64,000 bases of DNA, taken from positions 5,766,001-5,830,000 of the forward strand of contig NC_086097.1 of assembly GCF_963921235.1 (NCBI RefSeq). Reading direction: 5' to 3'. The notes under the pieces are model-generated. The model was given only the letters and a program-made list of their open reading frames with translations, did no database searches and had not been told where the DNA came from. This document shows positions 6,691 through 62,600 of this stretch, piece by piece (the first letter of the stretch is position 1; every line of letters starts with the position of its first letter). This DNA comes from Mobula hypostoma (taxonomy: Eukaryota). Both the position numbers and the translations under genes were made by a program.

Positions 6691-7589
6691 TTCTTTGCAC
6701 TGTAGGTCTTACAGTAATTTCAAATTAAAGGTTCAGAAGTTCAAATGTTCATCCATTATCAAAATATACAACTCTGAATTTCTTCTTTTCCAGCTAGCCA
6801 CAAAAGCAAGAAGGAAAAGAACAGCAGCACGGTCATCAAACTCCAAAACTCCCTCCCCACATAAAAAAAATGAACAAAAATGGTACAGGCAAGTCAACTC
6901 CCAAATTCCCCTCCCCACACACAAAAAAAGAGAATGATCAAGTGAAAGCAGAGAATATAAAACCACGAAGACTGATAAAAGTCCATATCCCAAAGGCAGA
7001 AAACCTAGCTAACATTCTCTGGGTACAGCGGCAGGCCTTAACCTCTTCGGTAGCAGAGCGACCACACCAGCGATCAAAAGGTAGTCTCTCCTCTCTGGCA
7101 GCAGAGCGATCCCACCAGCAAATTATTTACTATCTAGTGCAGTCAGCAATTGAAAATCGCTGCCACATAAATGTTGTTACCAATAACTGATAACTTACTG
7201 TTTAATCAACACCTGCTAAGAACATTTGAGAGTTAATGGTTTTTACAATGCATCAAGTTCAATTTTAATTGATATTGGAAATTTGAATTTCCAAATTAGC
7301 TTCAGGCATTCAAAGTGCTACATCTCTAGTGCACTCTGCAAAGATATTTTCAAACAAATTAAAATAATTATCAAAAATAATCATTTTTTAGGCAAGGACA
7401 TCCATGGATTACTTGATGTTATTCTTGCCCATCTTCCACTGTGAAAACCTTCTCAGAATCCGAATTAGGTTCAACATCACTGGCAAGTGTCATGAAATTT
7501 GTTGGTTTTTGGCAGCAGTACATTAACAATGCATAGTAATAAATACTATAAATCACAATAAGAAATATATAATTAAATTAAATAGCTTG

Positions 7590-7994
7590 TTGTTCCCTTA
7601 TTCAAGAAAGGGAGTAGAGATAGCCCAGGAAATTATAGACCAGTGAGTCTTACCTCAGTGGTTGGTAAGTTGATGGAGAAGATCCTGAGAGGCAGGATTT
7701 ATGAACATTTGGAGGAGCATAATATGATTAGGAATAGTCAGCATGGCTTTGTCAAAGGCTGGTCGTGCCTTATGAGCCTGATTGAATTTTTTGAGGATGT
7801 GACTAAATACATTGATGAAGGTAGAGCAGTGGATGTAGTGTATATGGATTACAGCAAAGCATTTGATAAGGTACCCCATGCAAGGCTTATTGAGAAAATA
7901 AGCAGGCATGGGATCCAAGGGTACTTTGCTTTGTGGATCCAGAACTGACTTGCCTACAGAAGGCAAAGAGTGGTAGTAGATGGGTCATATTCTT
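7590..7994 (+). mobile_element. CR1 RT fragment
   Basis: PLFKKGSRDSPGNYRPVSLTSVVGK...QHGF...MDYSKAFDKVPH. Confidence 0.9.
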
Positions 7995-8414
7995 GTTCAT
8001 TTGACTAATTCATTATGGGTAATATGTACAAAAGTTTGTAAAAAAAATCAGTTAATTGTATATGCCATCATGCTACCATGTGGTACGTGCGTGCTTCACT
8101 TAAAGTAAACTTGAAGTTAAACCCTTAATTTCAGACTCCTATGTTTTCGTTGAATTAATTTAATATTTTGACATTATAAAACATGACATTGGCAATGGAG
8201 TATTTCAAAAATGAACATGACACGGCTACCGACCTGTTAAAGTGGAGCAAGACTTTTGAAGTTTAAAAAACAACTTAATGCAGCAGAGCATGTGGAGACA
8301 CAGTCTTCAGAAGGGAAAACATGATCCAATATTTTTTTAAGTCTGAAGATGGAAGAATTCAGTGCTCATAAACTGTGAGTACTGGGTGATACTAGTCATT
8401 AAAAAAAATCAGAA

Positions 8415-9130
8415 ATGACAAGATAGATCAAAAAGATTGACGAGTTTGATTACACAATGAGTAATTGGCTCATGTATACTGAGCTATCTGAACAGTATTT
8501 TGAAGCAAATGACATGCGAGGACCAATTTTGTGAAGTGCATTAGGTTTTAATATATATAGTTTGATTTGAAGTTTGAATGCTCCAACCAGATCTGCAGAA
8601 GTGAGCCTTGGTGATTGTCAAAGCAATGCAGGAACATTCAGAACTAAAGCAATTGTTGGTGGCAAAATGTTTTAGATTTCAGAAGTGGAATCAAAAGGAA
8701 GGGGAGTCCACTTCAGCTTACATGGTTGAATTGAAGAAGTTGATTGAGCATTGCCAGTTCAGGGATGGGCTTAATGTTGCACTGAGAGATCATTTAGTTT
8801 GTGTAATCTTACAAGAAAGCATTCAAAAACAGCTCCTAACTGAGGGACAAAAAAAAATTTAAACAAGCAATGAAATCGCTATGTCAATGGAAATCAGAGA
8901 GACACATCTGAGTCACAGACAGGAATGAAAGTGAGCATGAACAAAATTTCAGCATTGAAACAGAAAGCTGCCTGGCCCAACAAATTGAGTTGCTGTTGTG
9001 GCAGGACCTCACATACTGTACACCAAATAAATGCAGATTTAAAATTGAAACTTGCAGAAAATGCAGCAAAGTAGATCACATACAGTACAAAGAGCATGTC
9101 AGGCACACAAATGTTACTGGACTGCACAGG
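8415..9130 (+). pseudogene. Gypsy gag, disrupted
   Basis: FRFQKWNQKEGES.SAY..ELKKL.EHCQF.DGLN.ALRD.LVC..LQESIQKQLLTE, plus two degenerate CCHC knuckles at about 8990-9090. Confidence 0.85.
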
Positions 9131-9179
9131 GAAGAGTAAAAGATAAAATCTGATACGGATGAGAGTAACACAGGATTGA

Positions 9180-9422
9180 AAACACAAAATACTCTGCAGA
9201 TGCTGGGGTCAAAGCAACACTCACAACACCCTGGAGGAACTCAGCAGGTTGGGCAGCCTACCAGCCTTCTCCTTCCCACCCTCCCCCCCATCTTCTTTAT
9301 AGGGCCTCTGCCCCTTCCCTCTTCCGTCCTGACGAAGGGTTCCGGCCCGAAACGTTGACTGATCATTTTCACGGATGCTGCCCGACCTGCTGAGTTCCTC
9401 CAGCGTGTTGTGAGTGTTGCTC
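9180..9422. mobile_element. Penelope-like insertion: inverted pLTR pair with 14-bp TSD
   Basis: taacacaggattga flanks both sides (9166-9179 and 9423-9436); about 9213-9258 is the reverse complement of about 9378-9422. Confidence 0.85.
9324..9361 (+). ncRNA. Minimal type I hammerhead ribozyme motif (Penelope-associated); best-preserved copy in the window
   Basis: ccgtc CTGACGA a gggt-tccg-gccc GAAA cg tt gactg: conserved core, stem II, palindromic ACGT stem III and stem I gtc/gac. Confidence 0.75.
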
Positions 9423-9479
9423 TAACACAGGATTGAGCAGCCTTGAGATTTACACTGTGAAAATTAACAATAGACAAGC

Positions 9480-9755
9480 AATTGGGTTACGGCAGACATG
9501 AATGACAAATTAACTAAAATGGAATACTGGGGATAAGATAACTCCTGTGGGAATGACATTTGTAACAGTGAAATACAACAACCAACAAGCCACACTGAGC
9601 TTGTATGTGGTAAAGTCAGAAGGGCCAGCATTGTGGGACATGATTGGCTGAGACAACTGCAACTTGATTGGAAATCCATCTGCAGTTTGCATGCCACATT
9701 CCCCACAATGAAGTCCACTGAAAGTGAACTATGAAAGTTACTGAATGATGCCACA
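9480..9755 (+). pseudogene. Gypsy protease region, disrupted
   Basis: ITPVGMTFVTVKYNNQQATLSLYVVK..GPALW...DWLRQLQLDWKSI. Confidence 0.7.
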
Positions 9756-9758
9756 AGC

Positions 9759-10475
9759 GTGCCCATGTCGAACACCATAAATTGTTGTCCAACAGAGGAC
9801 AAACAGTTAATGGTGCCAACCTCTGTGTCTCTGCTTGGGAAGCATATTGGACCAAGGAAGGACCATGCTGCTCAGAGGAAGCATGGAAGTGACAAAAGCA
9901 GTGGTCCGACTACAACAGTTTTTGTTGGCAACATATCTGAGAAAGCTTCTGATATGTTAATCAGGCAGTTATTTGCAAAATGTGGCTTTGTTTTATGCTG
10001 GAAGAGAATTCAAGGAGCTTCAGAAAAGTAGCAAGCTTTTGCCTTTTGTGAGATTAAAAAAGCAGAATCTATTCTGTGTGCATTAATGTTATCGTAGGAA
10101 CTTCAAGTCGGAGACAATAAACTAAACTGCTTGTAAAAGTAGAGGCAAGGACCAAAGTCCAGCTGGATGAATGGATGGTCAAAAAGACAGGAGTCAATGG
10201 AGAAACAAAAACAGAGGATTCTTCTGATGTCGTTGTGGATGAGGAAACCAAAATGAGAGATGAGTTTGTAAAGGGAGCAACAGAAGGATTAATAAGAGAA
10301 TACTCCGGTGAACTAAATAGACCTTACCAAGATCAGGATGCACAAACTAGAAGAAGAAAAAGTTGAGGGAAGTGATGGAGAGAAAGAATGGGAGTGAGTA
10401 AGAAAAAGGTGTGAAAGAGAGAAAAGATGTGAGAAAAGAAAGAAAGAGATCAAAGTAGATCCAGAAAGAGAATGG
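9759..10475 (+). pseudogene. RBM25: Processed RBM25 fragment (RRM plus part of the Arg/Glu-rich region) with stops and a frameshift
   Basis: GPTTTVFVGNISEKASDMLIRQLFAKCGFVLCWKRIQGASEK*QAFAFCE...LLVKVEARTKVQLDEW...VDEETKMRD...LIREYSGELN matches the RBM25 N-terminal RRM region as I recall it; no introns. Confidence 0.9.
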
Positions 10476-12094
10476 TTTCAAGAGCTGCCGGAACTACTTC
10501 CAGCAGTCTCGGAGTCAACTCTTACAACCACCACGGAGGCCCCAGAACCTGAAATTGTTTTCACAGCCACAAGTCTCACCTGCCAAGCAGAGTAATCCCC
10601 TTTGATAGGAACGACATTATCCCACAAGAGTAAGAATTCATTCACAGCGATTAAAACTTTAGATCTGAATAAGACCATTTAAAATTTACTATGTGTGGAT
10701 GCCAGTGTATAGTGGTTGTATTATAGATCCCAGTGTATAGTATTTCTATTATATAGTGTAGTGTGTATATAGTTGAGATGCATTCTATGTTGAGTTGGAG
10801 TTTGTAGCTAAGTAGGGAGGAGTGTTCCATATTTAATACTTTAGTAATATCTGAGTAATCTTGAGTATATATTGGTTAAGCATTCTTGATTGTTAAAATA
10901 ATTTATAACGGTTATATATAAAAAATATGTTAGTTGCATATGTCATCACGCTACCATGTGATACGTGCGCACCTCGCTTAGAGTAAACTAGATGTTACAT
11001 CCGTATTTTTGGACTCCTGTGTTTTTTTTGAATTAATTTAATGTTTTGAAGTTGCAAGACATAACACACCGCACCTGTAGAAATTTGTGAGAGATTTGGT
11101 GACATATCAAATACCTTCTATAACTTTATTATTAACTGCATTGAACCTTGTGAATATCGTTCGGATGACGGATGTGATAAGCTGCATTCAATTTGATCAA
11201 GTTTTATACAAAAAGCTTTAGTGAAAACTGGGGTCTTGGAGGTTACTATTTCAACAGTATTCAGATCCTGCAGAATGTCTGATTAAAACAGATCTGATTT
11301 GGATTCTGAACTCTCCATTTGATAGCAGGCTTTAGGTAAAGAAAGACTAACTGATCATTTATAACCCCCCAGATTTCATTTAAATATCAAAAAAAAGGTT
11401 TGCAAGTAGCAGATGCTCAAATATGCTCCAACTAAAAAGCAGTGAAGCAGTATTTTCCCCAAACATCCCAAATTTACATCAGTCCATCTTCCCTCCTTAC
11501 CCAAATGATTACTCTAACTACTTTCATTGAAAGATTCAGATGTCTCTTACTTTGATCAATGTAGACATTGTCCAGACTGTTAAAAAAGATTAAGATGAGA
11601 TTTTGTTTTGTTCCGTGTCTTCTGCCTTCCACCCATCTTGGATCTTTTATTCCATTGATCCTGAACCACGTTTTCTAGATCCAGTCATTCTGAGCACTGA
11701 TGAAAGATCAATAAACTGAAGTGTCAACACCGTTTCTTTCTTTGCAGGTGCTGCACAACCTCTTGAACAATTCATGCATTTACTATATTTTTATTGAGTG
11801 TCCAACAGCAATCATTCAAACCTTTTAAATACTGGAAACATGCACAGTGTGTAGAGTTCTGCAAATACAGTTAAGTAATTTTCGGTTGCCTTTTCCTTGC
11901 CTCATATGCCTGGATCATACTATCATAGATTTGACACAGCATAGAAGGACATTTGGTTAATGAAGTCTATGCTAGCTGCTAACAAAGCAATATCATCAGT
12001 TCTATTCTAACTCTGCCAAGGACGGTCCCAAGCCTGGCTGCTATAGGAGGAGGGTTAGACATTTAGCTTGCAACCCCATTCCATAAAAGATTTC

Positions 12095-12465
12095 CCCTCA
12101 AGGAAACTATACAGACTTTCATGTATTTTATCCTGTACCTCCAAGTACCCCGAAACCTTGATAATGGACTCAAACATCTTCCCAACAAACTGAAGTCAGG
12201 CAGACTAGCCTGTAATTTCATGCCTTTTGCTTTCCTTCTCCGTTCTTAGAGTGTAGAGTGACATTTGTGATTTTCTAGTTCTCTGGGACCATTCCAGAAT
12301 CGAGTGATTCTTGAAAGCTTATGGACGATGTCTCTACAATCTCTTCAGTCACCTCTTTCAGAAGTCTGGGGTGTAGTCTATCAGATGATTTATCCATATT
12401 CAGACCTTTCAGATTCCCAAGTACCTTCCTATTAGTAATAGCAACTGCACTTACTTCTGTCTCGG
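12095..12465 (-). mobile_element. CR1 RT fragment
   Basis: KVLGNLKGLNMDKS..RLHPRLLKEV.EEIVE....FQESLDSGMVPE. Confidence 0.85.
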
Positions 12466-13789
12466 CATATTGGATTCCATTCTGATTGCTGCAACACAGG
12501 ATGGATGTGGCAGCAACAAGGAGAGTGCATAACAGATTCAAGTTCAAGTGTGATTATTACTCAATCATACACATGAATGCAGACGAATGAAACTGTTCCT
12601 CCAAGGCCAAGGTGCTAAACACCGAACCAACAGCACATTGCACATTGCACATCTAGCACACATAGTTATGACAGCAGAAAAATATACAGTCACAAAGAAA
12701 TAATATGGCCCCAGACCTTGAGTAGATTGATGGTGCATGGGATGTTGTCCCACAGCCATATTTCTGCAAGAACAGGCCCATAGCTATTCCTCATCACACG
12801 CTAGTGCAGCCACAGATGAACACAATCCAGCTTGTCTTCCACCGAGCAAAGACTGGAGAGCAGCACCAATTGGCGGGCCAGTCCCAGACCCTGCATGAAC
12901 TCCTGATCCCTCCCACACAGCCTCTGGCATCTCTTTCCTGAGCAGCTGCAACAGGCGATACTGTGGCATGTGGACCTGGCCCGTGCAATAACTGGGGCAA
13001 CGCAGACCCCCCTCCCGCCATCAGTCTGACCAGTGAACCAGACTTGCAGCATTCTACACTACTAATGCTCATCAGGGACCTGCGATCACAAAAAGAAACA
13101 TCCAAGGCAATCACTTGCATCATCATCTGTTGGACTGCTAGGACGGAGCATGGAGTGGAGGGTTAACGAATACTTCAGACTGTATTGATAATATTTGTGT
13201 TTGTTGGCCCACTACACAATAGCCCATACTGAAGCCATTCTGCTTCCAGCCTGTGGTTCCCTTGGTTACAGCACAGGCATGTCATCGTTAGATGTATTCA
13301 GAAGCTCATTCACATTCTATTCCAGATGTGGCCTGACTGATAATTGCACCTCAATTGTGGAAAAAAAATGAGAACTGCTGGATTCTGATGGAAAAGCTAT
13401 AAGAGAAAAGAAAAGCACATAAAATCAAATCTCTGGCAAGTGAGTCTTCAAAGTTTTGTGTGTAAATCTGTAGTAAATGCACTGCCGCAATCATCAACAG
13501 TGCAATCAGTAGCCTGACCTTGCTAATGCCCAAATAAATCCTCCCTAAATGACATGCAGCATCTGCTGTTTTTCACGCCTTTTCCTACGCAAAATGACAA
13601 GATGAATTTCAGCATGCTTTACATTGCTTTACATAAAGTGCTCTCTGACTACATTTTACTTATGAATGAAGGAGGCTATTTAATTTTAAACAAGTCAGCA
13701 GCATCTGATGTAAAATTTTCCGGCATTTGACTATGCTCCGTTTGGGAATTTGGGGAAATCAGCATGACAGGAATAGGATTTCCTGTGGA

Positions 13790-13868
13790 CAGGGGTTCCC
13801 AATTTTTTTATGTTATGGAGCAATACCATTTAGCAAGAGGTCCATGCACCACAGATTGGGAACCCCTG
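13790..13868. mobile_element. hAT-type MITE, 79 bp
   Basis: Perfect 13-bp TIR caggggttcccaa / ttgggaacccctg, with a TCTAGA-like target on the right. Confidence 0.8.
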
Positions 13869-13879
13869 TTCTAGAGAGA

Positions 13880-14340
13880 GTCATTGATTCATAGAAAAGT
13901 ACAACACAAAAACAAGACCTTTGGCCCATCTGGTCTGTGCTGAGAGTCATTTAAACTGCCTGCTCTCACCGACCTGCATTAGGACCATATCCCTACTATC
14001 CATGTACCTATCCAAACTTCCCTTAAATGTTGAAATGGAGATCACATGCTCCACTTGTGCTGGTAGCTCATTCTACACTGTCATGACCCTTTGAGTGAAG
14101 AAGTTTCCCCTCATGTTCCCCTTAAAATTCTCACCTTTCACCTTTAACACATGACCTCTAGTTGTAGTCCCACTCAACCTCAGTGGAAAAATGCTGCTTG
14201 CATTTACCCTATCTGTACACCTCATAGTTTTTTTTTACCTCTATCAAATCTCCTCTCAATATTCTATGTTTCAAGGAATAAAGTTTTAACCTACTCAATC
14301 TTCCCTTATTACTGAGGTCCCTCACACCCAGCAACACCCT
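13880..14340 (-). mobile_element. CR1 3' end
   Basis: Reverse of RGH..KVKGE.F.GNMRGNFFTQRV plus the CR1 3' UTR. Confidence 0.8.
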
Positions 14341-14834
14341 CCAGAGGTTACAGAAGACCAGTTTATAATAGTCCTGGTAGGCAGAGTCAGATCCCTGCTC
14401 ACCGCAGGCAGCTGAAGGTTTTCTGTTCTTCCATTACTTTTTCTATTTTTATTAACTTTAGTGATCAATATGAACCACATAGGACCGAGGATAAATGGCA
14501 ACTCTCTCCCAAATAACAGTGAGATGATTTATCATATAATAAATGAAATGTCTCTCATGACAGTTCTCCAAAAATCAGATTATCTTCTTGAAGCTTGAGA
14601 TTCTGGTCCACTTGTTTAATTACACAAAATCTATTTCTGCCCACCAAGACTTTTTTTTAAAAAAATAACAACTATATTTACTGCAACATCCTTTCTGCAG
14701 CTCATAAGCTCTGTTTGGGTCGTAAGAAAGATGCAACGTTGAAATTGACCTTACTGAAAATAAAAGTGTTTTCTTTTTTGTCAGATCTCTTGGCTGTGGT
14801 ACTTCCTTTTAATCCTGTGCACATCCAGATTTCT

Positions 14835-15225
14835 CTGGCAAGGTCAGTATTCGATGCCTGGCCCTCACTGAGAAGATCGAAGTCAGCTGCTTACTTGAAC
14901 AATTTATAGTGAAGGTGTTTTCACCGTGTTATTTGGCAAGAAATTATATTGTTTCAACCTTTGACAGTTTTGAAATCAGGGGGTGTTCTAATCTGAAGGA
15001 AGTTTGTTGTAGTAATTGCTTCCATGAGCTGCAGGAGGCAAAGGTTTAGTCTGTAACGTGTAAGATGTTTGGTGAGGTGCGACTTTGCATTTTGCTGATG
15101 GTGAACACTGCAAACATTGTGCACTACTGGCGGCAAGAATGAATGTTTGGTGCAGTTGACAGCAATGCCACTGATGTCGAGGTCCTCAGAGCTGTTGGAA
15201 CGACATTCATCCAGGCACGCTCCTG
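14835..15225 (-). mobile_element. Old, highly diverged CR1/L2-group LINE 3' fragment
   Basis: Resembles from memory a shark LINE 3' segment (ggcaaggccagcattt...gagctgcactcatccaggca). Confidence 0.4.
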
Positions 15226-15364
15226 ATTTAAACCTGGAGGCTGCTGGAAGGGTTTTGATGAGATAGGAGATAAGTCTATGAAGGTGACTATTTTGGTTCA
15301 CTCTCTTCGTCTTGCCCTATTGTTATTCATCTTGTATATATATATATATGTGTAATTTATGTTA

Positions 15365-15925
15365 GGATGTATGGGGTGTCACGGAGGGGTAGCACCTCTG
15401 GTGGGGGAACATGTCGCATCCTTTTCAAGGCGGTTAGTCCACCTTTGGTCCCCACCTGGCACTCAGCTCTCACCTGTGGCTCCCCGTAGCTGTTTGCATG
15501 CGACAGCAGTCACACCCCAGGCAACAGCTTCGACAAGCCGGCTAAACCAGGTGAGGGTAGCCGACGGGTCTCAAACCCTCGGTGAGATAGGGAGTTGTCT
15601 ATCCCAGCATGTGAAGACAGACTCCGGCGGATTGAGCGGACGAGACCAATGGAAGGTCCAACGGTCAAGAAGGCGGTCTCTGCAAGCGTCGTGGAACGTG
15701 TAGAGCAGGATAAGACACAGAGACATCCTGGTCATCCACTGCGCCTAGTCCCATCTCCAGCCATCTAGACTCTGTCTTGCCACTGGATCCAGATGGGAAT
15801 TGGGAATAAAGAGTGAGGCTGACGCTGCGCAACTCTCCCTCACTTAAATCCAAATCACGCGCTAGTCTCGACACCATCATAATGGTGTCGAGGTCCTCAT
15901 CGACGTCAATGATGGATGAACAAGA
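15365..15925 (+). mobile_element. Non-coding retroposon, probably RTE-mobilised, with 12-bp TSD
   Basis: TSD taatttatgtta at 15353-15364 and 15926-15937; 3' hairpin ctcgacaccat-cata-atggtgtcgag; second copy at 37630-37797. Confidence 0.75.
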
Positions 15926-16544
15926 TAATTTATGTTAATTTAAGTTTTAAGATAGCACTGGTGAATCTCTATGGCTTCTGGCTAGTGGCTAACAAAATAA
16001 GGAAATCAACTAAATACTTTGTTAATCACTCTTTTTCTGGCAAGCAATCATCACAAGCAATAGTCTGTAACTTTTCTTTGGGCTTGACAGCAATTCAATG
16101 TGGCAGAACTGAGGTGAGGTGAGGCAGTGGGCCCATCACCAGGGGCAAGGAAGAGCCAAAGTTCGATCAATTGAAGAGTCAGGTCGAATTGGAAAGGTGG
16201 GAATTGAATTGTGGGGGGTGGGGTGAAGTCCAGGCCCCATAGCTAGATTGAAAAGATCAGGGTGTCAGGACTCGAGGCAAGGGACAGGCTGGTTCAGCTC
16301 ACTGCTCCACTCTGCGCTGAGCTAAGGATCTGGGGACGGATTCTTTGTGGACTTCAGTTCAGAACACTATTTGCTTTCTTTTATTGTTTCCAGGATTTGT
16401 GTTTTCTCTCCGCACATTAGGTATTCGATGGTCTTTTTTTTAATGAGTTCCTTGTTTTGTGGCTACCTGTAAGGAGACAAATCTCAAGCACCCAATAATG
16501 TCAAAGTACTTTGAACTTTAAAGTTCAAATTAACTTCTGTTATT

Positions 16545-16990
16545 TTAATAATAATAGTGATAATAATAAATTCTTTATAGAGCACTTTTTATACAGATAG
16601 AACTGTGCTTTACAATGGGATAAAGTGAAAACATAAAAAATTTTTTAAAAGATGTTAAGAAAAGGTTAAATAAATAGGTTTTGATCTGGAGTTTAGAAGT
16701 GTCAATTGAGTCTGCATCCCTTATAGTTTTAGGTATTGAGTTCCACAGTTTAGGAGCATAGCTCAAAATAAGTTGAACTGCCAATTATCTTTTGAGGGAG
16801 ATTGTTTAAATTTAAGAGACCAACAGAAGAAGACTTGAGAGATCAAGCAGGATTTTCAGACAAAAACGATTTTGTGACGTACTCTAGTCCCAGACCATTG
16901 AGAGCTTTAAAAACAAGTAAGCAAACTTTAAAATCAATTTTAAAAGAAACAGAAAGCCAATGCACAGTAGTTAGCATGGGAGTAATATTC
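16545..16990 (-). mobile_element. L2 LINE 3' end
   Basis: ITPMLTTVHWLSVSFKIDFKVCLLVFKALNGL, SYAPKLWNSIP, KLQIKTYLF; (att)n tail. Confidence 0.85.
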
Positions 16991-18200
16991 AGTATGCAGC
17001 CCTGAGGTGCTCCTGTATTGAGAGTCAGAGAGTTGGAGGAGAGGGAGCCCACTCTTACAACCTACCGGCAATCTGACAGAAAGTCCAGAATCCAGCTGCA
17101 CGAGGCAGGGTCAAGGCCAACGGCTCTGAGCTTCTTGCTGAGCCTGGATAGAACTATGGTGATGAATGCTGAACAGTAGTCCAAGAACAGCATTCTCACA
17201 TAAGCATCCTTCTTCTCCAGATGTGTAAGGACGGTGTGTAGAACAGTGGCTATTGCATCATCTCTCGATCGGTTGTGTCAGTAGGTTAATTGTAGGGGGT
17301 CAAATTGGGTGGTAGCAAACAGCAGATATAACCCTTGACCAGCCTCTCAAAGCATTTGTTTATTATTGAGGTGAGTGTGACAGGACACCAGTCATTCTGA
17401 CATGTTACCTTGGTCTTTTTTGATACAGGGACAATGGTGGATAATTTGAAGCCGGAGAGCACTGTACATTGGGAGAGAGAGAGAGAGAGAGAGATTAAAA
17501 ATGTCTGTAAACACACCTGCCAGTTGTGCTGTGCACATCCTGAGCACTCGGCCTAGGATGCCGTCCGGTCCCTCAGCCTCGTTGGAAGCATCTGCGTACC
17601 TCAGCCTCAGAGACGACCAGGCTGCAGGCTGTAGTGGGGGCTTTCCTTGGTGGTTCAGAGTCAGTGACATCAAACCCACTATAAAAGCGATTGAGCTCAT
17701 CTGGGAGAGGGGCCACGATGTTGGCGGCACCACAATGTTTGGCTTTGAAGTCTGCGATGGTATGCAGCCCTCGCCACAAGTCACGTGTATTATTTGTTGT
17801 AAATCTTGACTCAATATTCTCCTTATATTGTTGTTTTACAGCCTTATAGCTTTTTGCAGATCATAGCTGCTTTTCTTGAGCTCTAGTTGATCGCCAGCGA
17901 TGTAAGCTCAATGTCCCACTGTAAGTGTTGCTCGCCCGGAACTATTGATCCAGGGTCTCTGTTTTGGGAAGACATCGACTGTCTGATTGCTGGGATTGCT
18001 GGATGCAAGGGAAGGATCACTGACAACGCTAAGGGAACAGTGTATGCAGCGCTCCAGATAAAAATCTCTAATGGGTGGAATAAAGACCACCCAAGTGCAC
18101 CAGTTAACGCAATAATGGCAAGAGCAATGGTTGTGTAAAATTTCTGAAGGTGATCTTGTCTCCACATTGGGATAGTCTGTTGTGTAGCAGAATCATCATG
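16991..18200 (-). mobile_element. Rex1/Babar RT region, with (GA)n at 17472-17493
   Basis: FPKQRPWIN, LPDELNRFY..FD, GPDGI.GRVLR, CFERLV, LTLNTGAPQGC. Confidence 0.9.
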
Positions 18201-18539
18201 CTAAGTGAGATAGACTCAGAACAGATTGAGTATCACAAAATGGATGTCCGTGAAGCAGTCTAGATCATTAACAGTGGCTTCAAGCACTTTACAATGTATT
18301 TTAAGAATTAATTTGTACATTCAATGCTCACACTTATTCTCCAGTGCTAATTGTCCTAGGATTGAGTGACTTACTGGGCCATCTCTGAGTGCAATTAAAA
18401 AGCTGTTTGGTCTGGAGGGAAATGAAGTCAGAATGACAGATTCCCCTCCCAAAGGACAGACATTTTCGTTCCCTGCAGTGATCCAGTAAGTTTAGATACC
18501 ATGTTAAGGAACCGGAGCCGCAGCTTGATGACCTTCAGT

Positions 18540-19180
18540 TCATATGGGACAATGAGGAGGAGATAGTTAGGGGGCACAGGGAGACAGGAGTCAGATTCCT
18601 GGGTGACTGTCAGGAAAGGGCAAGGGTCAAAGCGGTCAGTGCAGAGGACCCCCGTGGCCATTTCCCTCAATAATGAGTACACTGTTTTGGATACTGTTGG
18701 GAGGAAACAACTTACCAGAGAGAAGCCCACAGTAACTGGTTCTCTGCACTGAGTCTAAATCTGTGGCTCAGTAGGGAAGGGGGGAGAAGACGAGTGCAGT
18801 AGTGTCAGAGCAGAGGAGCAGAAAGAAGATTCTGCGGATGTGAAGGAGACGCCAGGATGGTATGTTGCCTCCCAGGTTCCAGGATAAGGGACATCTACGA
18901 CTGGGTCCACGTCATTCTAAAGGGTAAAAGGTGAAAATTTTAATGGGATGGTGAGGGAAAACTTCTTCATTCAGAGGGTGGTGAAAGCATGGAATGAGCT
19001 GCCTGCACAAGTGGTGCATGCAAGCTCGATTGCAATGTTTCAGAGACGTACATGGACAGTAGGGGTATGGAGGGCTATGGTCCATCGGCCAGTCGATGGC
19101 AGTAGGCAGTTTAAATGGTTCAGCACTGACTAGATGGGACAAAGGGCCTGTTTCTGTACTGTATTTTCCTATGACTCTAT
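18540..19180 (+). mobile_element. CR1 ORF1 piece joined to a CR1 3' end
   Basis: WVTVRKGQGSK...IS(P)LNN.Y..LDT and MVCCLPGSRIRD of ORF1, then FFIQRVVKAWNELP. Confidence 0.7.
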
Positions 19181-19864
19181 TGCAAAGTATTTGCTGCTGA
19201 AAAACAACAAATTTCAGTGTGCCAGTGATACTAAACCTGATTCAGATTATGATTTTGATTATGATCTGGGGTAACAATATATTTGTTCTCCTTTACACTT
19301 GTGTACTAGAAATGACATTAAACAATCTTGAATCTTTGCAGCTTACATTGATTCTGTTAATTGATTTAGTGGTGTTCAGTAGTAATGAGCAGCAATAAAT
19401 GAATGGAAACTATACAAACTATTGTTAATTTTGTTCTCCAGCCATTCTTATCTCCTGGGTATTGATGGAATCCTGTAGATGCCTGATCGGATTGTAAATT
19501 TCCTTTATCCTTTGCTTGTGGAATATTAAACATATTATAATTCCCTATTCTCTCTCATCATTCCACTCCACAATGTTGAGCCTGTGTGGCACAGGAATAG
19601 ATCACTCTGAATTTTACTATCGAGGGCCTCCTTCTTCAATTGCCTGATGTTCCTTGTGGAGAGAAATGTGTGAGCAGAGCATCCAGCCAGTAAACCTTTA
19701 AAGGAAGAATTCCAAAGGGGAGATGGACAAGTGGAGAATGCTAATGCAAGGGTAATGTGGTGCTTCTGTTGCAGAATAAGAACTTCAGAATTGAACGATA
19801 AACATTCAAATAGTATTGTGAAAGAGGCAGAAACCTATACTTAGTTCAATAAATAGTCAATGGG

Positions 19865-20232
19865 CGGTGGGGTGAAGATACATTTCTACCAAAGAAGGTG
19901 TAGTGCGCTCCTTCCCGCTGTTAGCCTGCAGGTCACCCTTAATCAATGTGTAACACCTGCTTAGTGCCACCACCCCCCCCCCCCAATCAGATGGTGGATG
20001 GTCGTATGAGCAGCAGGTACATATCACAATTCCTGGTTATGCGACCACTGACGCCAGGCAGACAACAATCTCTGAAGAGTATTGATAATGGCTGGGGTTA
20101 CCCATCTTGCAAAGACACTGCCCAGAAGGAGGCAATGGCAAACCACTTCTGTCGAAAAATTTCCCAATAACGATCGTTGTCATGGAGACGATAATCACCC
20201 ACATCACATGACAAACATGATGATGATGATGA
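19865..20232 (+). mobile_element. BovB/RTE-related short element; other copies at 3813-4345 (-), 46757-47100 (-) and 55150-55396 (+)
   Basis: Shared cccagaagRaggcaatggcaaaccacttct motif like Bov-A and Sauria SINE; (tga)n tail. Confidence 0.65.
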
Positions 20233-20551
20233 AACTGTCAAGTTTGAGGCCACAGAAGCACAGTAATTTAAGTGCCTGAATTAGCATAGAGACTGAAATG
20301 TGATTTTATAAAGGTGCATTAGATTATGGAGTGTGGCATAGATGGGGTAAATTCACACAGTCTTTGTCACTGGGAAAGGGAAATTATTTATTTATTTGTT
20401 TGTTTAGCGATACCATGCCCTTCTATCTCAATGAGCCTCCCAGTAACCTACATATTCAACCTTAGCCTAACCACAGAACAATTTAAAATGATCAAATCAA
20501 ACACCAGAGGCCATAAGTTTAAGGTGAGAGGGGAAAATATTAAAAGTGACC

Positions 20552-22357
20552 TGCATAAACCTACATAAAAGTGAATTTTTCCCTTTGAACAATTTGGTAC
20601 TAATAAATTCTAACCTTTCTTTTAAAATTGTAAGAAACCAATTTACTTATTTAGGTGTAACAATTGCTAAAAATTATGTGTCTATTTCAAGAAAATTTTC
20701 TTACTCTATTGAATCATGTAAAAAGAATATTAAATTGGTCGGCTCTTTCTTTATTGTTAATTGGTCGAATAATCTCTATCAAAATGAATATATTACCTAA
20801 ATTTATATATCTTTTTCAGGCATCGCCGGTTTTCATTCCTAAATCCTTTTTTGGTTTTCTGGACTCTATTGTATTTTCTTATATATGGAAGAATAAGCAT
20901 TCTAGATTAAATAAAATTCATCTTCAGAAAGATGAGAAAAATGGAGGATTAGTTTTACCAAATTTTAGATTTTATTATTGGGTAGTTAATATAAGAAATC
21001 TTACATTTTGGTTATATTGTATAAACCGTGAGGATTCCCCGAAGTGGATTTTTTAGAAGCTAATTCTATTAATAAATTCTCTATTATTTATCTTCTTGGA
21101 TCCTCACTTCCTTTGTTTTTAAGTAAGTTAACTGATAATCTGGTAGTTAAGCACACTATGAAGATTTGGATACAATTCCGAAAATATTTTGGCTTATTGA
21201 GATTTTCTCTTTTGAGTCCCATTTTTTCTAATTATTTTTTTTAAACCCTCTATGATTGATGTGGCTTTTAAAGAATGGGATAGATTAGGTATGAAATGCT
21301 TTCAGCACTTGTTTGTAGAGGGAAGTCTTTTTTCATTTGAACAATTGTCAACTAAATATCGCTTACCCAAAACTCATTTTTTTTTGATATCTACAAACAA
21401 GAGGTTTTTTACGGTCTCAAATAAGTACATTTCCTAAAAGTCCTGATAAGAATCTACTAGATGTAATTTTTAATCTGAAACCTTTTTATAATGGATCTAT
21501 ATCTAATGGAGTATTTATAATATGCTGTTGGGAATGAGAAGTGTTCCTTTGGATGAAATTAAAAATCTTTGGCAACAAGATTTACAGACTTCATTTCATG
21601 AGGAAACTTGGAATCAAATGTTTGCACTGGTCAACACTTCATCGTTATGTGCCCATCACTCTCTCCTTCAATTTAAAGTAGTCCATAGGGCCCATATGAC
21701 CAAGGATAAGTTGCCTCTTTTTTATTTAGTTATATCTCCGTATTATGATAAATGTAATAATGGAGAAGCTTCACTCATTCATATGTTTTGGACATGTCTG
21801 AGTCTTGAAAAATATTGGAAAGAAGTATTTCAAACCTTTTCGATACTTTTTAAAGTAAATTTCAAGCCTAATCCTTTGACTGCTTTATTTGGTATTGTTG
21901 GAGGAAAGGATATTACTTTGGAGCCATCTGATTAGCACACTTTGGCTTTTATGTCTCTTATGGCCAGTAGGACACTCCCGCTTAAATGGAAAGATATGGC
22001 CCCTCCTATTCACGCCCAATGGTTACGTGATGTGATGTCATGTTTAAATTTAGAGAAGATTTGATGTTCAATCTTTGAATCTAATCAAGACTTTCAAACA
22101 TTGTGGGGACCTTTTCTGAATTATTTTAAAAATGTTTGATTTGCTATTGAAGCACAGATGATGACTAACAATCTTTTTTTCTTTTTTTTCTACTAATCAG
22201 CTTTGGTCTTGGTAGCGGGTTAGATTTTTTTAATATAATAAAATTATTATTTTTCAATGTTGTGAACTAATTGACTTGTACGGATATAGGGTAAGGAGTC
22301 TTTATATGCAATTCAGCTTAATGTATTGGCATATATATTTGTTTCCTGTATTCTGTA

Positions 22358-22392
<35 letters not shown>

Positions 22393-22434
22393 TAATAAAA
22401 ATATTGAAAGAGATAAAACATGCCATTGTAAAAA
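20552..22434 (+). mobile_element. 5'-truncated L1 (ORF2 C-terminus, 3' UTR, poly-A) inserted in a CR1 3' fragment
   Basis: FTYLGV, GRIISIKMNILPKFIYLFQ, GGLVLPNF..YYW, LQFKVVHR...C...HMFWTC; AATAAA at 22394; TSD aaaagtgacc at 20542-20551 and 22435-22444. Confidence 0.92.
22361..22389. repeat. (AT)n microsatellite
   Basis: About 14 AT units in the L1 3' UTR. Confidence 0.95.
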
Positions 22435-23224
22435 AAAAGTGACCGGGGTGGATTTCTTCATGTGGAGGATGGTGTATTTATAGAACAAGCTGCCAGAGCA
22501 AACAGTTGAGGTAGGTACATTATAACATTTAGAAGACATTTGGTTAGTATGTGGATATGGCGTGATGCATATTCATTTCTTGACCACTAAGATTCTTTCT
22601 CTTTCTTGGTTGTTTACCAGTCTTGATTTCTAAACACAGCATCTGCCACTTGTAAGATCACAAACAGATGTAAGTAAACTTCCAACAAACAGTTTTCAAA
22701 CTTTTGTTGTAAAGGGAAGTCTGTCTTCAGTTTTTGAAATGTAAGTGGAAAGCTCTAATCACCTTGAGGTTAAAACAAGTATTGTCTACAGACCAACTTT
22801 GCAAACAAGCTTTGTGAACATTGGATGTTCTGCCTAAGAGAAGTAAGGTTTAAATCACTACACCTGCTTTATTGCTGCTCAAAATGCAGTATAAATCAAT
22901 GGGTTGCTTACTTAGGGTTGTCTCAAACAGACAAGCTGACTCTTAACTTGCTTGGGTCAAGGAATCTTGTAGAACAGATGAGGCCTATATATTGATAGAC
23001 TATTATTTATGCTATCAATAGCTTTGACATGTTTACTGTTGGAAGGTTTTATGTGCTCACAGCATTAATGATATCTAGATAAGATCCATGTCTCAAATGC
23101 TTTTAGACCATTTGTGACAAAAGGATTTCTGAGAAACTATCACAGGCTTGTGAAGTCACTTAAGTGAGAGAAAAAAGGTATAAATGTGAGGAAGAATTCA
23201 GGCTTATTAGGAATGAGGTAAGGA

Positions 23225-23495
23225 ACATAGTAACATAGAAACATAGAAAATAGGTGCAGGAGTAGGCCATTCGGCCCTTTGAGCCTGCACCACCATTCAG
23301 TATGATCATGGCTGATCATCCAACTCAGAACCCTGCACCAGCCTTCCCTCTATACCCCCTGATCCCTTTAGCCACAAGGGCCATATCTAACTCCCTCTTA
23401 AATATAGCCAATGGACTGGCCTCAACTGTTTGCTGTGGTAGAGAATTCCACAGATTCACCACTCTCTGTGTGAAGAAGTTTTTCCTAATCTCGGT
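23225..23495 (-). mobile_element. CR1 3' end
   Basis: (acatagaa)n tail; reverse of FFTQRVVNLWNSLPQ. Confidence 0.85.
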
Positions 23496-24379
23496 CCAAC
23501 ATCAAGAAACATGGAAGAACTACAAACGTAGAATCTATTTCTCCAGCTGTGGTTTCTGCTACACACAAATGTTTGACTGTATCTTTGGTATTTCTTTTTA
23601 GATTATAGGAACTTTACCCATGTTTTGGAAATCCTTAATTATTTATGCTTCAGAAAAGCTTTGATGCTTGTGCTTTAGAAATGGTTGGTGCCTTAGAAAT
23701 AGCTTGTATTTGGGAAATGTTTTAGATAGAAATCCTTTGTGAGTTTCCAGTGTTTAAGAGTGTTGTGTGAACTTGAATGTGTATCACTGTAAATAAATGA
23801 ATAGTGTTAGTTGGATGTAGCTTCTCCTCGGTAGCGAGAGGGGACTCACCACTCGAATAGCAGCTATACTCACCATGGAGATTAAACAGGGAAGTAAACT
23901 GGTCTTTGAAGATTAAGTAGCTACAGTATAATCTCCCTTTAGTGAGAGTACTCAAAGAGGATAACTACTACTCATTTAAAGAATCTTTTATCTTGTTATT
24001 TCATGCTCGTTATTTATTGTTATTTACTTATTATCTGTATTTGCACAGTTTTTTTTACAGTTTGCAGTTCCTAATGTTTATAGTTGACAGTTACTGCTAT
24101 ACAGATTTGCTAAGTATGCCCTGCAGAAGAAGAATCTGAGGCTTGTATGTACTCTGATAATAAACTTTATTTCGAATTTTGAAATTTGTACTTGTGACTA
24201 TTTTTATCTGAAAGGGTTTGAAGGTGTTATTTGAGTTTAGAACTTTGTGGTCAGCAAAGCCAACACCATCGCAAAGGTTTAAGTGATATGGAGTAAACAA
24301 TGAAGGCATCACAGTATAGCGGTTAGCATGAATCTGTTACTGCTCAGAGCATCAGAGTCTGGAGTTTAATTCCAATCTC

Positions 24380-24755
24380 CTCTCCTCCAAGAGGACCACA
24401 ACCTTGTCATTGGGGTTGGCAGCTCGTTTCCAGCCCTGGCTTGAGCCAGGGCTTTATGCTTTGGCTCTTGGTAGCGTCACTTATGCCAAACAGGTCAAAG
24501 GGTAGAAGCCAACTAAGACTGGTCCACTGGTTCTCCAGGTTTGGGGTTTCAGCTCAGAGCTAACAACCCTGGCTGATGAAACAAAACTGTTACATCTGAG
24601 TGTAACGGTATTCTTGAGTGACCACTTGAAACTTGTGTGACTATCAGCAGTGAAAACCGAGCTTCTGACACGATGAAGGAAGCCCTGAACAATGCCAGAG
24701 ATGGAGGACCTTCATTGCTTTCCTGAAAGCCAGTGGCATAACAAGTAGGAGGTAG
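24380..24755 (+). mobile_element. RTE (Expander/Rex3-like) bipartite non-autonomous element inside a V-SINE (24310-24830)
   Basis: RTE 5' UTR-like cacaaccttgtc...ttggtagcgtcac...aacaaccctg joined to a 3' end reading RWRTFIAFLKASG. Confidence 0.6.
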
Positions 24756-25009
24756 ATCTGATGTCCACGGTAAAAGGTTTATACATTCTCCCCGTGAATC
24801 ATGTGCATTTCCTTTGGGTGCTCTGCTTTCATTTATGAGTTAGACTGAAGTGTCTGTTTCTGTACAATATTATCCTCTGACCCTATGACCTTGGTTACAA
24901 ATCCAGAGACCTGACATCAAATTCTACCAGAGTTACAGGGCAACTTAAACATAATTAATGAAATAAATCAAGAATATAATGGCAATATCAGCAATGGTGA
25001 CTAAGAAAT

Positions 25010-27690: not shown

Positions 27691-27699
27691 AGATGTATA

Positions 27700-28425
27700 T
27701 AATTTTTTAAAACTACAAATTTCAATAAAATATATATAAATTAAATAAATATTGCAAAAAGAGATCAAAAAAAAGAAAAAGAAAATAGTGTACAAAGATT
27801 CCTTGTCCATTCAGAAATCTGATGGTGGGTGGAGAAGAAGCTGTATCTAAACTGTTGTGTCAACACAGCAGAAAAAAGAAGATAGAGATCATAATAGTAA
27901 AGAAACAATAAATAAATATATATACATAAGATAGTATGTGTACATAGATTGATCTTATGTCGATAAAGTGACACTAGACATAGGAGAGGTGATTGACAAG
28001 AAATTATAAAGTAGTGGTGGTTGAAGATGTGGAGGGGTGGGTGAGTGGGTGGAGGTGTTGATCAGCCTTACTGCTTGGGAAGGTAACTACTTTTAAGTCA
28101 GGTAGTCCTGGCGTGGATGCTACGAGCCTGAACCCTGTTGGGACTGGGTCAAACAGTCCATGAGCAAGGTGGGTGGGATCTTTCATGATGTTACTGGCCA
28201 CTTTTTAGCATCTTTCTGTATATATGTCCTTGATAGTGGGTAGGCTGGTGCTGCTGATGCTTTGGGAGTTCTGGCTATTCATTGAAGAGCCTTCTTGTCC
28301 ACCACAGTGCAATTTCCATATCACGTAGTGATGTATCATGTTAGGATGCTCTCTACTGCGCAACTGCAGAAAGAAGTGAGTATAAATTTGCGTGATCCAG
28401 ATTTATTTAACCTTCTTAGAAAGTA
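27700..28425 (-). mobile_element. Rex1 3' regions
   Basis: ASNIMKDPTHLAHGLF and AVESILT.YITT motifs. Confidence 0.7.
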
Positions 28426-28706
28426 GCGAGGAAAGAACTTGATAAACTTTCCTTTGAAGTTATTCAGAGGTAGGACAATGTTAAAATCCCAGAGCTTAAA
28501 GAGACTTACAATTTTTGATTGACTGAGTGGGGAAGTAAATATCCCTCTGCAAAATTATTACAAATCAACACTCCTGAGATTGGTGACTAATGCTTTCAAT
28601 ATCATTAATGTTACTATGGCTTTGTTTTATTTTGATTCAATTTTGTTTCACATAAACCTTTAGCTGCCAAAATAATATATAGCTCTCACGGTACGTTACA
28701 GCCATA

Positions 28707-28763
28707 CAGTGCTGTGCACTTTAGCTATAAATATATGTGCCTAAGACTTTTTGCACAGTACTG
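28707..28763. mobile_element. Tiny Tc1-type MITE
   Basis: TA-cagtgctgtgca...ttttgcacagtactg-TA. Confidence 0.7.
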
Positions 28764-29196
28764 TAGTAATTTCATGTATTGCACTGTACCACTGCCATAA
28801 AAATAACCCAATTTTTTGACACCGTGTGATCTATTGTGGAATGAGAGGGGGAAGGGGGTAGGGAGAGGGAACTTAAGATTGGGAAAAGTGGAAAGGAATG
28901 GGGAGGGAGCAGCAAACACCAGCGAGACATTCTGGAATGATGAATGAACCAATTGATTGGAACCCATTGACCTTGCCTTGGTGTGTCTGTACCCATACCA
29001 CACCTGTCCCCTACCCTGGCCACCTGTCCCACACCCCCTCTGTGGCACACCACCCTCGCCATTCTCAACATCCTTTGCTCCTGCCAGATCTGCTGCTGCT
29101 TGGCAACAAATTTCATGCCATGTGCTTTTGAGAATAAACCCGATCTGATTCTGAATCTGTTTTACAAACTTGGTCTCCGCTCCACATTGACAAATG

Positions 29197-43600: not shown

Positions 43601-43618
43601 TCACCAGGGTCCCCCTTT

Positions 43619-62381: not shown

Positions 62382-62600
62382 AAGACAAGAGATTCTGCAG
62401 ATGTTGGAAATGCGGAGCAGCACACACAAGATGCTGGAGGAACTCAACGGGTCAGGCTCCAGCTGGGGGGGGGAAGGAGTCAATGTTTCAGGCAGTACTT
62501 CAGCTGTCCTGACGAAGGATATCAACACAAAATGTTGATTCTTTAGTCCTTTCAACAGATGTTGCCTGACCTGCTGAGTTCCTCCGGCATTTTGTGTGCT
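62382..62600. mobile_element. Penelope inverted pLTR pair, degenerate
   Basis: gcacacacaagatgctggaggaactca is inverted to tgagttcctccggcattttgtgtgc; CTGACGA core at about 62509. Confidence 0.75.

Follow-up and report, generated by a model that had tools for sequence, protein, structure and literature searches.

How did coding sequence of the host gene RBM25 come to lie inside an LTR retrotransposon, in the place where pol would be expected, and did the resulting chimera multiply? We addressed these questions for a locus in a stretch of 64,000 nucleotides of the Mobula hypostoma genome (contig NC_086097.1, positions 5,766,001 to 5,830,000 of the forward strand), hereafter called the window, in whose coordinates all positions are given. 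The original prediction, made from the letters alone, had described this locus as an LTR element that carries a captured piece of spliced RBM25 mRNA instead of its pol core.

Architecture of the element

The stretch 7994-11066 of the forward strand is a decayed copy of an LTR retrotransposon (Table 1). Two direct terminal repeats, each beginning with TG and closing with CA, bound it; they are 79% identical over a 150-nt core and show 80% column identity in the full alignment. The sites resembling a PBS and a polypurine tract as well as a gag and protease region were found between the repeats, as had been predicted. The Gypsy label of the original prediction is not supported, as the copy offers gag-like and retropepsin-like leads only and no pol on which a superfamily could be based.

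Table 1. Features of the element and its upstream flank, in window coordinates.
Feature	Position	Strand	Remarks
LINE reverse-transcriptase fragment (upstream flank)	7586-7993	+	Pfam RVT_1, E 8.3e-15; outside the element
5' LTR	7994-8188	+	195 nt; TGTTC start, ACA end; indels of 21 and 27 nt close to the start
Putative PBS-like site	8190-8206	+	TGG start, 1 base past the 5' LTR; read by eye
Decayed gag	8605-9139	+	85-aa core ORF 8605-8862, then pieces in other frames
Very high-copy repeat, later insertion	9180-9422	.	243 nt; 50-nt inverted arms; at the gag/protease boundary
Protease remnant	9437-9734	+	two frames (9514-9651, 9537-9734); Atlas RVP match
RBM25 coding sequence, intronless	9738-10360	+	623 nt; phmmer, tblastn; sense
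Purine-rich tract	10363-10480	+	80-88% A+G; possibly a decayed Glu/Arg-rich piece of RBM25
3' internal region	10481-10809	+	depth 11,000-29,000, of the same order as gag/protease; holds RHYPTRVR
Polypurine-tract-like run	10810-10822	+	directly 5' of the 3' LTR; read by eye
3' LTR	10823-11066	+	244 nt; TGTTC start, ACA end

The upstream edge is sharp. Homology between the flanking LINE and a second LINE copy (54230-54119) stops exactly at 7993, and in contigs other LINE copies continue beyond this position with unrelated letters. A target-site duplication is absent at this copy, as the five bases before 7994 and those after 11066 do not match, and the flanking LINE was not found again within 9 kb downstream of 11066. 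Together, the missing duplication and the failure of the LINE to resume point either to rearrangement after insertion or to sequence exchange with another copy. Searches with blastn and tblastx revealed no further copy of the element in the window, where the inserted short repeat alone recurs. Rfam returned nothing for 7900-11200 at E ≤ 1. The window holds 114 ORFs of at least 90 aa; 108 of these were submitted to Pfam, and the other six, all of which overlap with the element or with the LINE beside it, were scanned separately. LINE reverse transcriptases are plentiful among the ORFs of the window according to Pfam.

The gag region retains a remnant of a zinc knuckle (CX2CX4H, 9053-9079) that was read from the ORF. 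For the core ORF 8605-8862, the Pfam family PNMA was under the cut-off (E 0.043), and Retrotrans_gag clusters made up 28 of the 30 Atlas matches (score 0.94), which we treat as a lead only. None of 99 candidate gag homologues in longer proteins reached E ≤ 0.001, and the PDB sequence search gave matches at chance level (best TOPLESS, E 0.048). The top Atlas match of ORF 9514-9651 was RVP (0.95, 188 shared features). No Pfam match was obtained for the protease remnant and no catalytic motif is visible in it; when 23 bases of it were used to scan metagenomes, 0 matches were returned. Protease frame 9537-9734 terminates at a TGA (9732-9734) and is the frame of the RBM25 piece. Gag and protease are now separated by the 243-nt repeat, on whose two sides 14 nt of target sequence (9166-9179 and 9423-9436) are perfectly duplicated. 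Its summed depth rises up to 2.4 million versus about 13 on unique flank, more copies are present in the window, and Rfam gave no match for it.

The captured RBM25 piece

We searched for relatives of the piece at the protein level. In a phmmer search, 208 of 347 candidates reached E ≤ 0.001 (best 3.1e-37), and the matches were named RBM25 or were unnamed RRM proteins; the overall best phmmer match was an RBM25-like protein of the shark Heptranchias perlo (E 6.0e-45). By tblastn, this protein (P0227) aligned with E 3e-76 and without gaps save for one frameshift, residues 1-120 covering 9765-10124 (72% identity) and residues 119-197 covering 10124-10360 (76% identity). The alignment of a second protein, P0228, starts at 9738, and the piece corresponds approximately to residues 8-217 of this 268-aa partial protein; it is thus a fragment and no copy of a whole gene. 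Pfam recognised RRM_1 in it right at the cut-off (20.7 bits), and no PWI domain was found in six frames.

In one contiguous stretch, the piece comprises a lineage-specific insert, the complete RRM and a linker portion of about 90 residues. The insert is an extra segment of about 16-20 residues (..CPTE[GD]KQ..) that only 3 of 228 compared proteins share with the element. The splice form seen in the element is that of isoform X2 (P0227), in which 4 residues of isoform X1 are missing. An alternative promoter or an RBM25 intron was considered as the source of the start of the piece and rejected, as P0228 shows the extra residues to be ordinary coding sequence in this lineage. The 5' junction with RBM25 lies at about 9735-9738 and not at 9760-9860. 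Likewise, the proposed jump from the RRM to the Arg/Glu-rich tract was not borne out, as the RRM is followed contiguously by linker and the likeness to the Glu/Arg-rich region was reached by 2-23 of 500 shuffles.

Intron positions were inferred from the single-exon ORFs of real RBM25 genes. In these, similarity is lost after RQLLA in 10 of 12 proteins, breaks around KCGLVLSWKRVQGASGKLQ (P0192) and before AFGFCEY (P0122), and breaks before NARPE and after KKEKKE[ED] in 15 of 18 proteins. The element runs unbroken across the corresponding positions (around 9806/9807, 9977/9978, 10034/10035 and around 10200). Being unbroken across at least four inferred intron positions, the piece points to a spliced mRNA origin, and the prediction of an intronless sense fragment of RBM25 stands. 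The hallmarks of a processed pseudogene made by LINE machinery are absent. The piece ends in the middle of coding sequence with the mRNA 3' end missing, no A-run of seven or more is present on its 3' side, in agreement with the poly(A) lack noted before, and no flanking target duplication surrounds it.

Missing pol, 3' region and decay

Pfam searches of all six frames gave RRM_1 as the only family and neither RT nor RNase H nor integrase, which argues that pol has been replaced, as had been proposed, and not interrupted. The purine-rich tract that follows the RBM25 piece may originate from the Glu/Arg-rich region of RBM25. When the tract was scored against this region of four references, shuffled sequences reached the score in 2, 13, 16 and 23 of 500 cases, so that the likeness cannot be told from an effect of composition, and the references did not agree in their best frame. 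A match to KLEEEK in frame 3 was rejected because its nucleotides fit better as the frame-2 end of the contiguous RBM25 stretch. No Pfam family was detected in the 3' internal region. RHYPTRVR is located there at 10611-10634, consistent with its expected position near 10610-10640, but its original label as a pol C-terminal tail is unsupported, since no search linked the motif to integrase.

The 7994-11066 copy is dead. Two TAG stops (10029, 10095) and a frameshift near 10124 disrupt the RBM25 piece, the 243-nt repeat has been inserted, and the two LTRs are only about 80% alike, in line with what had been claimed of it. A single TGA separates the protease remnant from the RBM25 piece, with both in one frame, so that the suggestion of a possible former in-frame fusion is supported.

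Amplification in three organisms

We compared contigs of three related organisms (X1, X5 and X9) with the element; the summed contig depth used here does not equal copy number. At 7 of the 11 listed sites of the RBM25 piece, at least 99-122 distinct contigs of X1 carry a letter other than that of the 7994-11066 copy, and at the remaining four sites at least 46-61 distinct contigs do so. Counts of variant contigs in X5 and X9 were similar. Over the RBM25 piece, the summed depth amounts to 3,000-26,000, compared with about 13 for the unique sequence 3' of the element, a difference of about 1000-fold. Among the contigs listed, the protease-RBM25 junction is bridged at 80-85% identity by records 3 and 4 of X1, records 18-20 of X5 and records 26 and 27 of X9, and variants on either side of the junction (9716 and 9782) occur in at least 57-75 contigs. 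Of the 11 variant sites with the best support in the piece, 8 show the residue of the parent-like protein P0227 in most other contigs, indicating common descent of the copies. The remaining three sites are synonymous, and the 7994-11066 copy is parent-like at none.

The depth profile is uneven. Depth is about 2,600 in the bin with the junction (9672-9788), compared with about 74,000 for protease and about 19,000 for RBM25, so the exact junction is perhaps common to only part of the copies at a likeness of at least 80%. A depth of 555 was recorded for 10374-10490, versus about 16,000 and 25,000 in the adjoining bins, and several contigs connect 10362 directly to 10535 or 10559. We do not read the thin contig cover at 10374-10490, or that at 8151-8384, as absence. 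Within 130 nt past 11066, the depth drops to about 14 from about 24,000, meaning that the repeat unit ends at the LTR edges as it does in a mobile element. From a further data set, X19, taken to be RNA by guess alone, we draw no conclusion on expression, as its low-depth cover extends to the unique flank.

The many diverged copies and the bridged junction in three organisms indicate that the RBM25 chimera itself multiplied, as presumably a non-autonomous family, and the idea that the chimera had spread as a family is thereby upheld. The loss of pol and the LTR pair are features read from the 7994-11066 copy alone.

Origin of the chimera

The arrangement found, with gag and protease upstream of an intronless host piece, a 3' internal region and LTR downstream of it and no pol, is that of a chimeric retrocopy. 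We consider it likely that the 7994-11066 copy belongs, in a decayed state, to a presumably non-autonomous LTR family founded by template switching of RT onto spliced RBM25 mRNA, such switching being the most likely origin of the chimera. Within a virus-like particle, an RT at work on the RNA of a gag-protease-pol element would have switched to a co-packaged spliced RBM25 mRNA and then back. About 0.62 kb of RBM25 (RRM and linker) would thereby have taken the place of everything from the end of protease to the internal 3' end; orientation and frame of the piece are those of protease. The chimera would have retained the LTRs, the PBS, the polypurine tract and the gag region, and these parts would have made it mobilisable by the proteins of an autonomous relative. 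By the time the three organisms diverged, it would have reached hundreds of copies or more. We infer the joining by template switching, the mobilisation in trans and the timing.

Three other histories were weighed. It is unlikely, in our judgement, that an autonomous LTR lineage gained the RBM25 RRM between protease and RT and that the present copy later lost RT, RNase H and integrase by deletion. Such an extra domain would explain why the RBM25 piece and protease are in frame, and host fragments within consensus proteins of transposable elements are on record (Abrusan et al., 2013, NAR, PMC3597677). Moreover, given the depth of only 555 at 10374-10490 and the contigs that depart at 10362, other copies may continue differently from here. 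However, the contigs leaving 10362 land at 10535 or 10559 in the 3' region and not in unfamiliar sequence of the length of RT, those that skip from 10362 are just a few hundred bases long, and traces of pol are present in zero frames. A double switch that returns to the exact point of departure is also unlikely, whereas replacement is the reported outcome (Tan et al., 2016, Genome Res, PMC5131818).

Less probable still is the spread of a chimera of single origin by tandem or segmental duplication of DNA instead of retrotransposition. The lack of a target duplication at the 7994-11066 copy would be compatible with such a course, the flanks having been seen for this copy alone, but the copy sits between a LINE fragment and single-copy DNA, with a depth of about 14 past the 3' LTR. 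In addition, the other copies differ from it by 15-20%, and, by the variants listed, its departures from the parent are private. We strongly disfavour, as the least probable history, a LINE-driven processed pseudogene of RBM25 inside an LTR element from which deletions took pol, poly(A) and target duplication: LINE reverse transcriptases do occur in abundance in the window and the copy is old enough for its hallmarks to have eroded, but the piece has neither the mRNA 3' end nor poly(A), its orientation is sense and its frame that of protease, and the junction is repeated in many contigs of 80-85% identity from three organisms, implying that the whole chimera was copied. Of the two observations named beforehand as speaking against the original prediction, a single locus with poly(A) and a best match other than RBM25, neither was found.

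Discussion

Our data favour a template-switching origin of the RBM25 element, and comparable chimeras have been described. LTR-mediated retroposition is reported to yield chimeras that can act as non-autonomous elements and go through further cycles, in a model defined by short microsimilarity between mRNA and element where the switches occur (Tan et al., 2016, PMC5131818). In the cases described there, as in our element, a truncated intronless host mRNA replaces the internal ORF region, both LTRs are present and no poly(A) or target duplication surrounds the piece, and sense orientation and in-frame products are common. Those cases, from fly, mosquito, zebrafish, chicken and mouse as well as human, are young and have one or few copies (Tan et al., 2016, PMC5131818), whereas the RBM25 element is old, with LTRs about 20% diverged, occurs in three organisms and shows more than 100 distinct variants per site. 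The mechanism of LTR-mediated retroposition is already known. What appears to be undescribed is RBM25 as a cargo and amplification on this scale.

Replication-defective transducing retroviruses with gag-onc fusions likewise captured mRNA by template switching, lost pol, carry their cargo in frame with gag-side sequence and depend on a helper. They are exogenous, somatic and selected for cell transformation. In contrast, the RBM25 element is a genomic repeat of the germ line, has no envelope gene and gives no sign of a present function. Maize Bs1 is an element of low copy number. In Bs1 and in LTR elements of rice, fragments of host genes replace pol and a helper is needed, as here; these, however, are plant elements, and Bs1 combines three genes, unlike the single animal gene fragment of the high-copy RBM25 element (Tan et al., 2016, PMC5131818). 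Families of transposable elements that carry fragments of host proteins, with examples from Gypsy and BEL, are comparable in this respect too, although the terms 'RRM' and 'RNA-binding' do not occur in the main text of that work (Abrusan et al., 2013, PMC3597677).

There is a slim chance that an in-frame Gag-protease-RRM fusion was expressed and that the RBM25 module gave the defective element an edge. If so, the RRM might bind the element's own RNA and deliver it into helper particles, or keep this RNA unspliced. The cargo, beyond the small size of the chimera, would then account for an abundance that is comparable with that of the gag and protease parts shared with the presumed helper.

Capture of host mRNA by LTR elements of animals is known mostly from young chimeras with a single or few copies, whereas the RBM25 element represents an ancient and large amplification in at least three organisms. 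It thus offers a natural test of whether a host cargo can aid the spread of a defective retroelement. Hundreds of RBM25-like RRM pseudo-exons in a genome also lead to confused "RBM25-like" gene models and bear on repeat masking. Finally, the RBM25 piece is an old snapshot of a splice form of the host RBM25 gene.

An LTR element carrying a fragment of RBM25

The plus-strand element at 7994-11066 is an LTR retroelement in outline. A 150-nt core of its LTRs (8039-8188 versus 10917-11066) is 79% identical, and the full LTR alignment gives 80% column identity with two indels close to the LTR starts, in keeping with the strong divergence originally predicted. Upstream, the element is flanked by a fragment of a LINE reverse transcriptase (Pfam RVT_1, E 8.3e-15), whose similarity to a second LINE copy breaks off exactly at 7993. 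No continuation of this LINE was found in the 9 kb past 11066, and bases 7989-7993 and 11067-11071 form no target duplication. The copy was therefore either rearranged after insertion or formed by recombination between two copies; on the second view the 20% LTR divergence need not reflect its age. Complete TG..CA LTRs yet no target duplication may reflect exchange between two copies or a deletion at the 3' flank.

Features of the RBM25-bearing element and of other elements in the window
Feature	Position	Strand	Remark
5' LTR	7994-8188	+	starts TGTTC, ends ACA
PBS-like site	one base past 5' LTR	+	begins TGG, read from sequence
Gag-like ORF, 85 aa	8605-8862	+	weak evidence
CX2CX4H remnant	9053-9079	+	read from ORF
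Repeat, 243 nt	9180-9422		perfect 14-nt target duplications at 9166-9179 and 9423-9436
RBM25 piece, 623 nt	9738-10360	+	
Purine run, 13 nt	10810-10822	+	directly 5' of 3' LTR
3' LTR	10823-11066	+	starts TGTTC, ends ACA
ORF with GDSL-lipase/esterase domain	26399-27740	-	E 9.9e-08; directly downstream of same-strand RVT_1 ORF
Open ORF, 321 aa, complete RVT_1	31655-32617	-	E 1.3e-21; fairly intact non-LTR reverse transcriptase
Chromovirus-type Ty3/Gypsy element, mostly open	39388-45037	-	Pfam domains

For the gag-like ORF, Retrotrans_gag clusters made up 28 of the 30 named Atlas matches (0.94); Pfam PNMA (E 0.043) lay under the cut-off, none of 99 candidates in a word-indexed search of longer proteins reached E<=0.001, and PDB sequences matched at chance level only. 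The ORF at 9514-9651, whose first Atlas match was RVP (0.95, 188 shared features), is a candidate lead to a retropepsin; Pfam found no protease in the element, nor did inspection of this ORF reveal a catalytic motif. The Gypsy label is putative, given by resemblance in an element that lacks pol, and so is the reading of RHYPTRVR at 10611-10634 as an integrase tail.

The inserted 243-nt repeat has 50-nt inverted arms (92% complementary), and further copies lie near 1572-1694, 51476-51958, 59226-59881 and 62368-62612. It is by far the commonest sequence of the window, with summed depth reaching 2.4 million where unique DNA has about 13, and has no Rfam match. Hairpin arms with a long target duplication are an odd blend of MITE-like and SINE-like traits.

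Elsewhere in the window, the chromovirus-type element encodes gag (472-aa ORF; Retrotrans_gag, Ty3_capsid), RT, RNase H, an integrase core, SH3_Tf2-1 and a chromodomain; tblastx found no relation between it and the RBM25-bearing element. The ORF with the GDSL domain may belong to an esterase-bearing LINE.

The captured piece derives from a spliced RBM25 mRNA

The read-through translation of 9735-10133 matched 208 of 347 candidate proteins at E<=0.001 (best E 3.1e-37, 61% identity); among the 120 of these that were listed, the named ones were RBM25 or unnamed RRM proteins. With 9537-10133 as query, the best of 101 matches was P0159, 'RNA-binding protein 25-like isoform X1' from the shark Heptranchias perlo (E 6.0e-45, 69%), which upholds the proposed identity. 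Isoform X2 (P0227) and P0228, a Logan protein of 268 aa that carries no name, fall in the same cluster as P0159. By tblastn, P0227 residues 1-120 fall on 9765-10124 (frame 3, 72%, gapless; whole match E 3e-76) and residues 119-197 on 10124-10360 (frame 2, 76%), while the P0228 alignment begins at 9738; the piece is thus a single contiguous stretch. Its reading frame shifts once, near 10124, and is broken by TAG stops at 10029 and 10095, in agreement with the view that this copy is dead.

The piece contains an extra segment of about 16-20 residues (..CPTE[GD]KQ..) seen in three of 228 proteins compared. It widens the gap between two conserved motifs, which is 66 residues in P0228 but 41-50 in 136 of 138 proteins with both motifs. 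As the piece also follows the X2 form in being without four residues of X1, its parent was an RBM25 mRNA of the host lineage, in line with the chondrichthyan host supposed at first. RBM25 of this fish lineage, represented by P0159, P0227 and P0228, has the extra residues ahead of the RRM and two acceptor forms four residues apart. Their short annotated or assembled forms run into intron past the KKEKKEE exon or past FRDTHK; similar read-through ends, which also occur in unnamed proteins from other vertebrates (P0143), hint at a conserved truncated RBM25 isoform.

Many database matches are single-exon ORFs on genomic contigs of real RBM25 genes, where similarity ends at fixed residues and gives way to unrelated sequence, mostly with V first, as expected for a GT donor. 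Similarity ends past RQLLA in 10 of 12 RBM25-gene proteins compared and past FRDTHK in P0143 and P0228; P0122 starts at AFGFCEY, the exon KCGLVLSWKRVQGASGKLQ stands alone in P0192 with similarity lost on both sides, and 15 of 18 proteins compared are confined to the exon that spans about NARPE to KKEKKE[ED]. Judged from these protein ends, RBM25 probably has introns at four points where the element runs on uninterrupted: ~9806/9807 (an alternative acceptor), 9977/9978, 10034/10035 and ~10200. The piece thus appears intronless, as had been claimed.

The RBM25 alignment ends after 10360, near the end of the KKEKKE exon. A further jump to the Arg/Glu-rich tract, part of the original prediction, is possible but fared less well: 10363-10480 is 80-88% purine and resembles the Glu/Arg-rich region weakly (tblastn E 0.002 with composition correction off), and against four references 2, 13, 16 and 23 of 500 shuffles matched the observed score, with the best frame varying.

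The chimera belongs to a probably old family

We aligned Logan contigs of four public runs to 7800-11300 at 80% likeness: X1 and X19 (organism A, X19 being guessed RNA), X5 (organism B) and X9 (organism C). In the three DNA runs the unique 3' flank (11193-11300) had summed depths of 14, 13 and 10. For X1 the depth was 12,700-58,000 over gag, 26,000-74,000 over the protease remnant, 3,200-26,600 over the RBM25 piece, 11,000-29,000 over the 3' internal region and up to 24,000 over the 3' LTR, similar to X5 and X9; summed contig depth is not copy number, and we read these values as about three orders of magnitude over single copy. Distinct-contig counts are more telling. Among the 11 variant sites listed in the RBM25 piece, another letter occurs in at least 99-122 distinct X1 contigs at seven and in 46-61 at the remaining four (a site can count 128 contigs at most), with similar counts in X5 and X9.

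In each of the three organisms the protease-RBM25 junction is bridged by contigs that share 80-85% identity with this copy (among the longest listed, X1 records 3 and 4, X5 records 18-20 and X9 records 26 and 27), and variants on either side of it, at 9716 and 9782, occur in 57-75 contigs. This bears out the suggestion that the chimera amplified as a family. At eight of the 11 best-supported sites in the piece the majority letter of the other contigs gives the P0227 residue; the other three are synonymous, and this copy is parent-like at none. Its private changes include one of its two in-frame stops. The copies therefore share one RBM25-bearing ancestor, and the damage here is mostly this copy's own. 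Other copies are known from contig pieces, none spanning a whole element. Depth is just ~2,600 in the junction bin (9672-9788), so perhaps only a fraction of copies have precisely this junction; it is 555 over 10374-10490, and the few contigs linking 10362 to 10535 or 10559 indicate that the 3' junction varies between copies.

Organism B has an orthologous copy (records 17, 23 and 24, 1.5-3% different), with record 24 spanning the 3' LTR into unique flank. In organism C the flank is present at ~10% divergence, but its 28 letters on the LTR side are too few to prove the insertion there. The remaining copies are 15-20% different from this one. Taken together with comparable depths across the three organisms, these data suggest an old burst before their divergence.

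Discussion

The element's architecture agrees with LTR-mediated retroposition through a double template switch. The host RBM25 piece is truncated, spliced and in sense, lacks poly(A) and stands in place of pol between kept parts of one element, and the chimera was subsequently copied as a unit. This mechanism has been described, and such chimeras are also reported to act as non-autonomous elements (Tan et al., 2016; PMC5131818). The RBM25 piece is in the same frame as the final ORF of the protease remnant (9537-9734), with a lone TGA at 9732 between them. This fits a former protease-RBM25 fusion, along the lines of the Gag-PR-RRM fusion originally envisaged; chance would give the same outcome one time in three.

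It is unlikely that an autonomous lineage merely added an RRM domain and that this copy is its deletion derivative. Pfam on the six-frame translation of the whole element (E<=1) returned RRM_1 as sole family, in one frame; RT, RNase H, integrase and PWI are absent from all six, as foreseen for the pol core. Multiplication of the chimera by DNA-level duplication seems less probable still. A nested LINE-driven retrocopy is very improbable: no A-run of at least 7 is present close to the 3' end of the piece, consistent with the predicted lack of poly-A.

Among the papers listed by a full-text search for RBM25, retrotransposon and LTR, none concerned a captured RBM25, judged by title and abstract. 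A catalogue of 51 incorporations of host fragments into TE consensus sequences has neither 'RRM' nor 'RNA-binding' in its main text (Abrusan et al., 2013; PMC3597677). Literature on gene capture by LTR elements also includes plant reviews. The mechanism itself is known; the unusual features are the scale and age that the amplification reached in a vertebrate, together with an in-frame RRM cargo.
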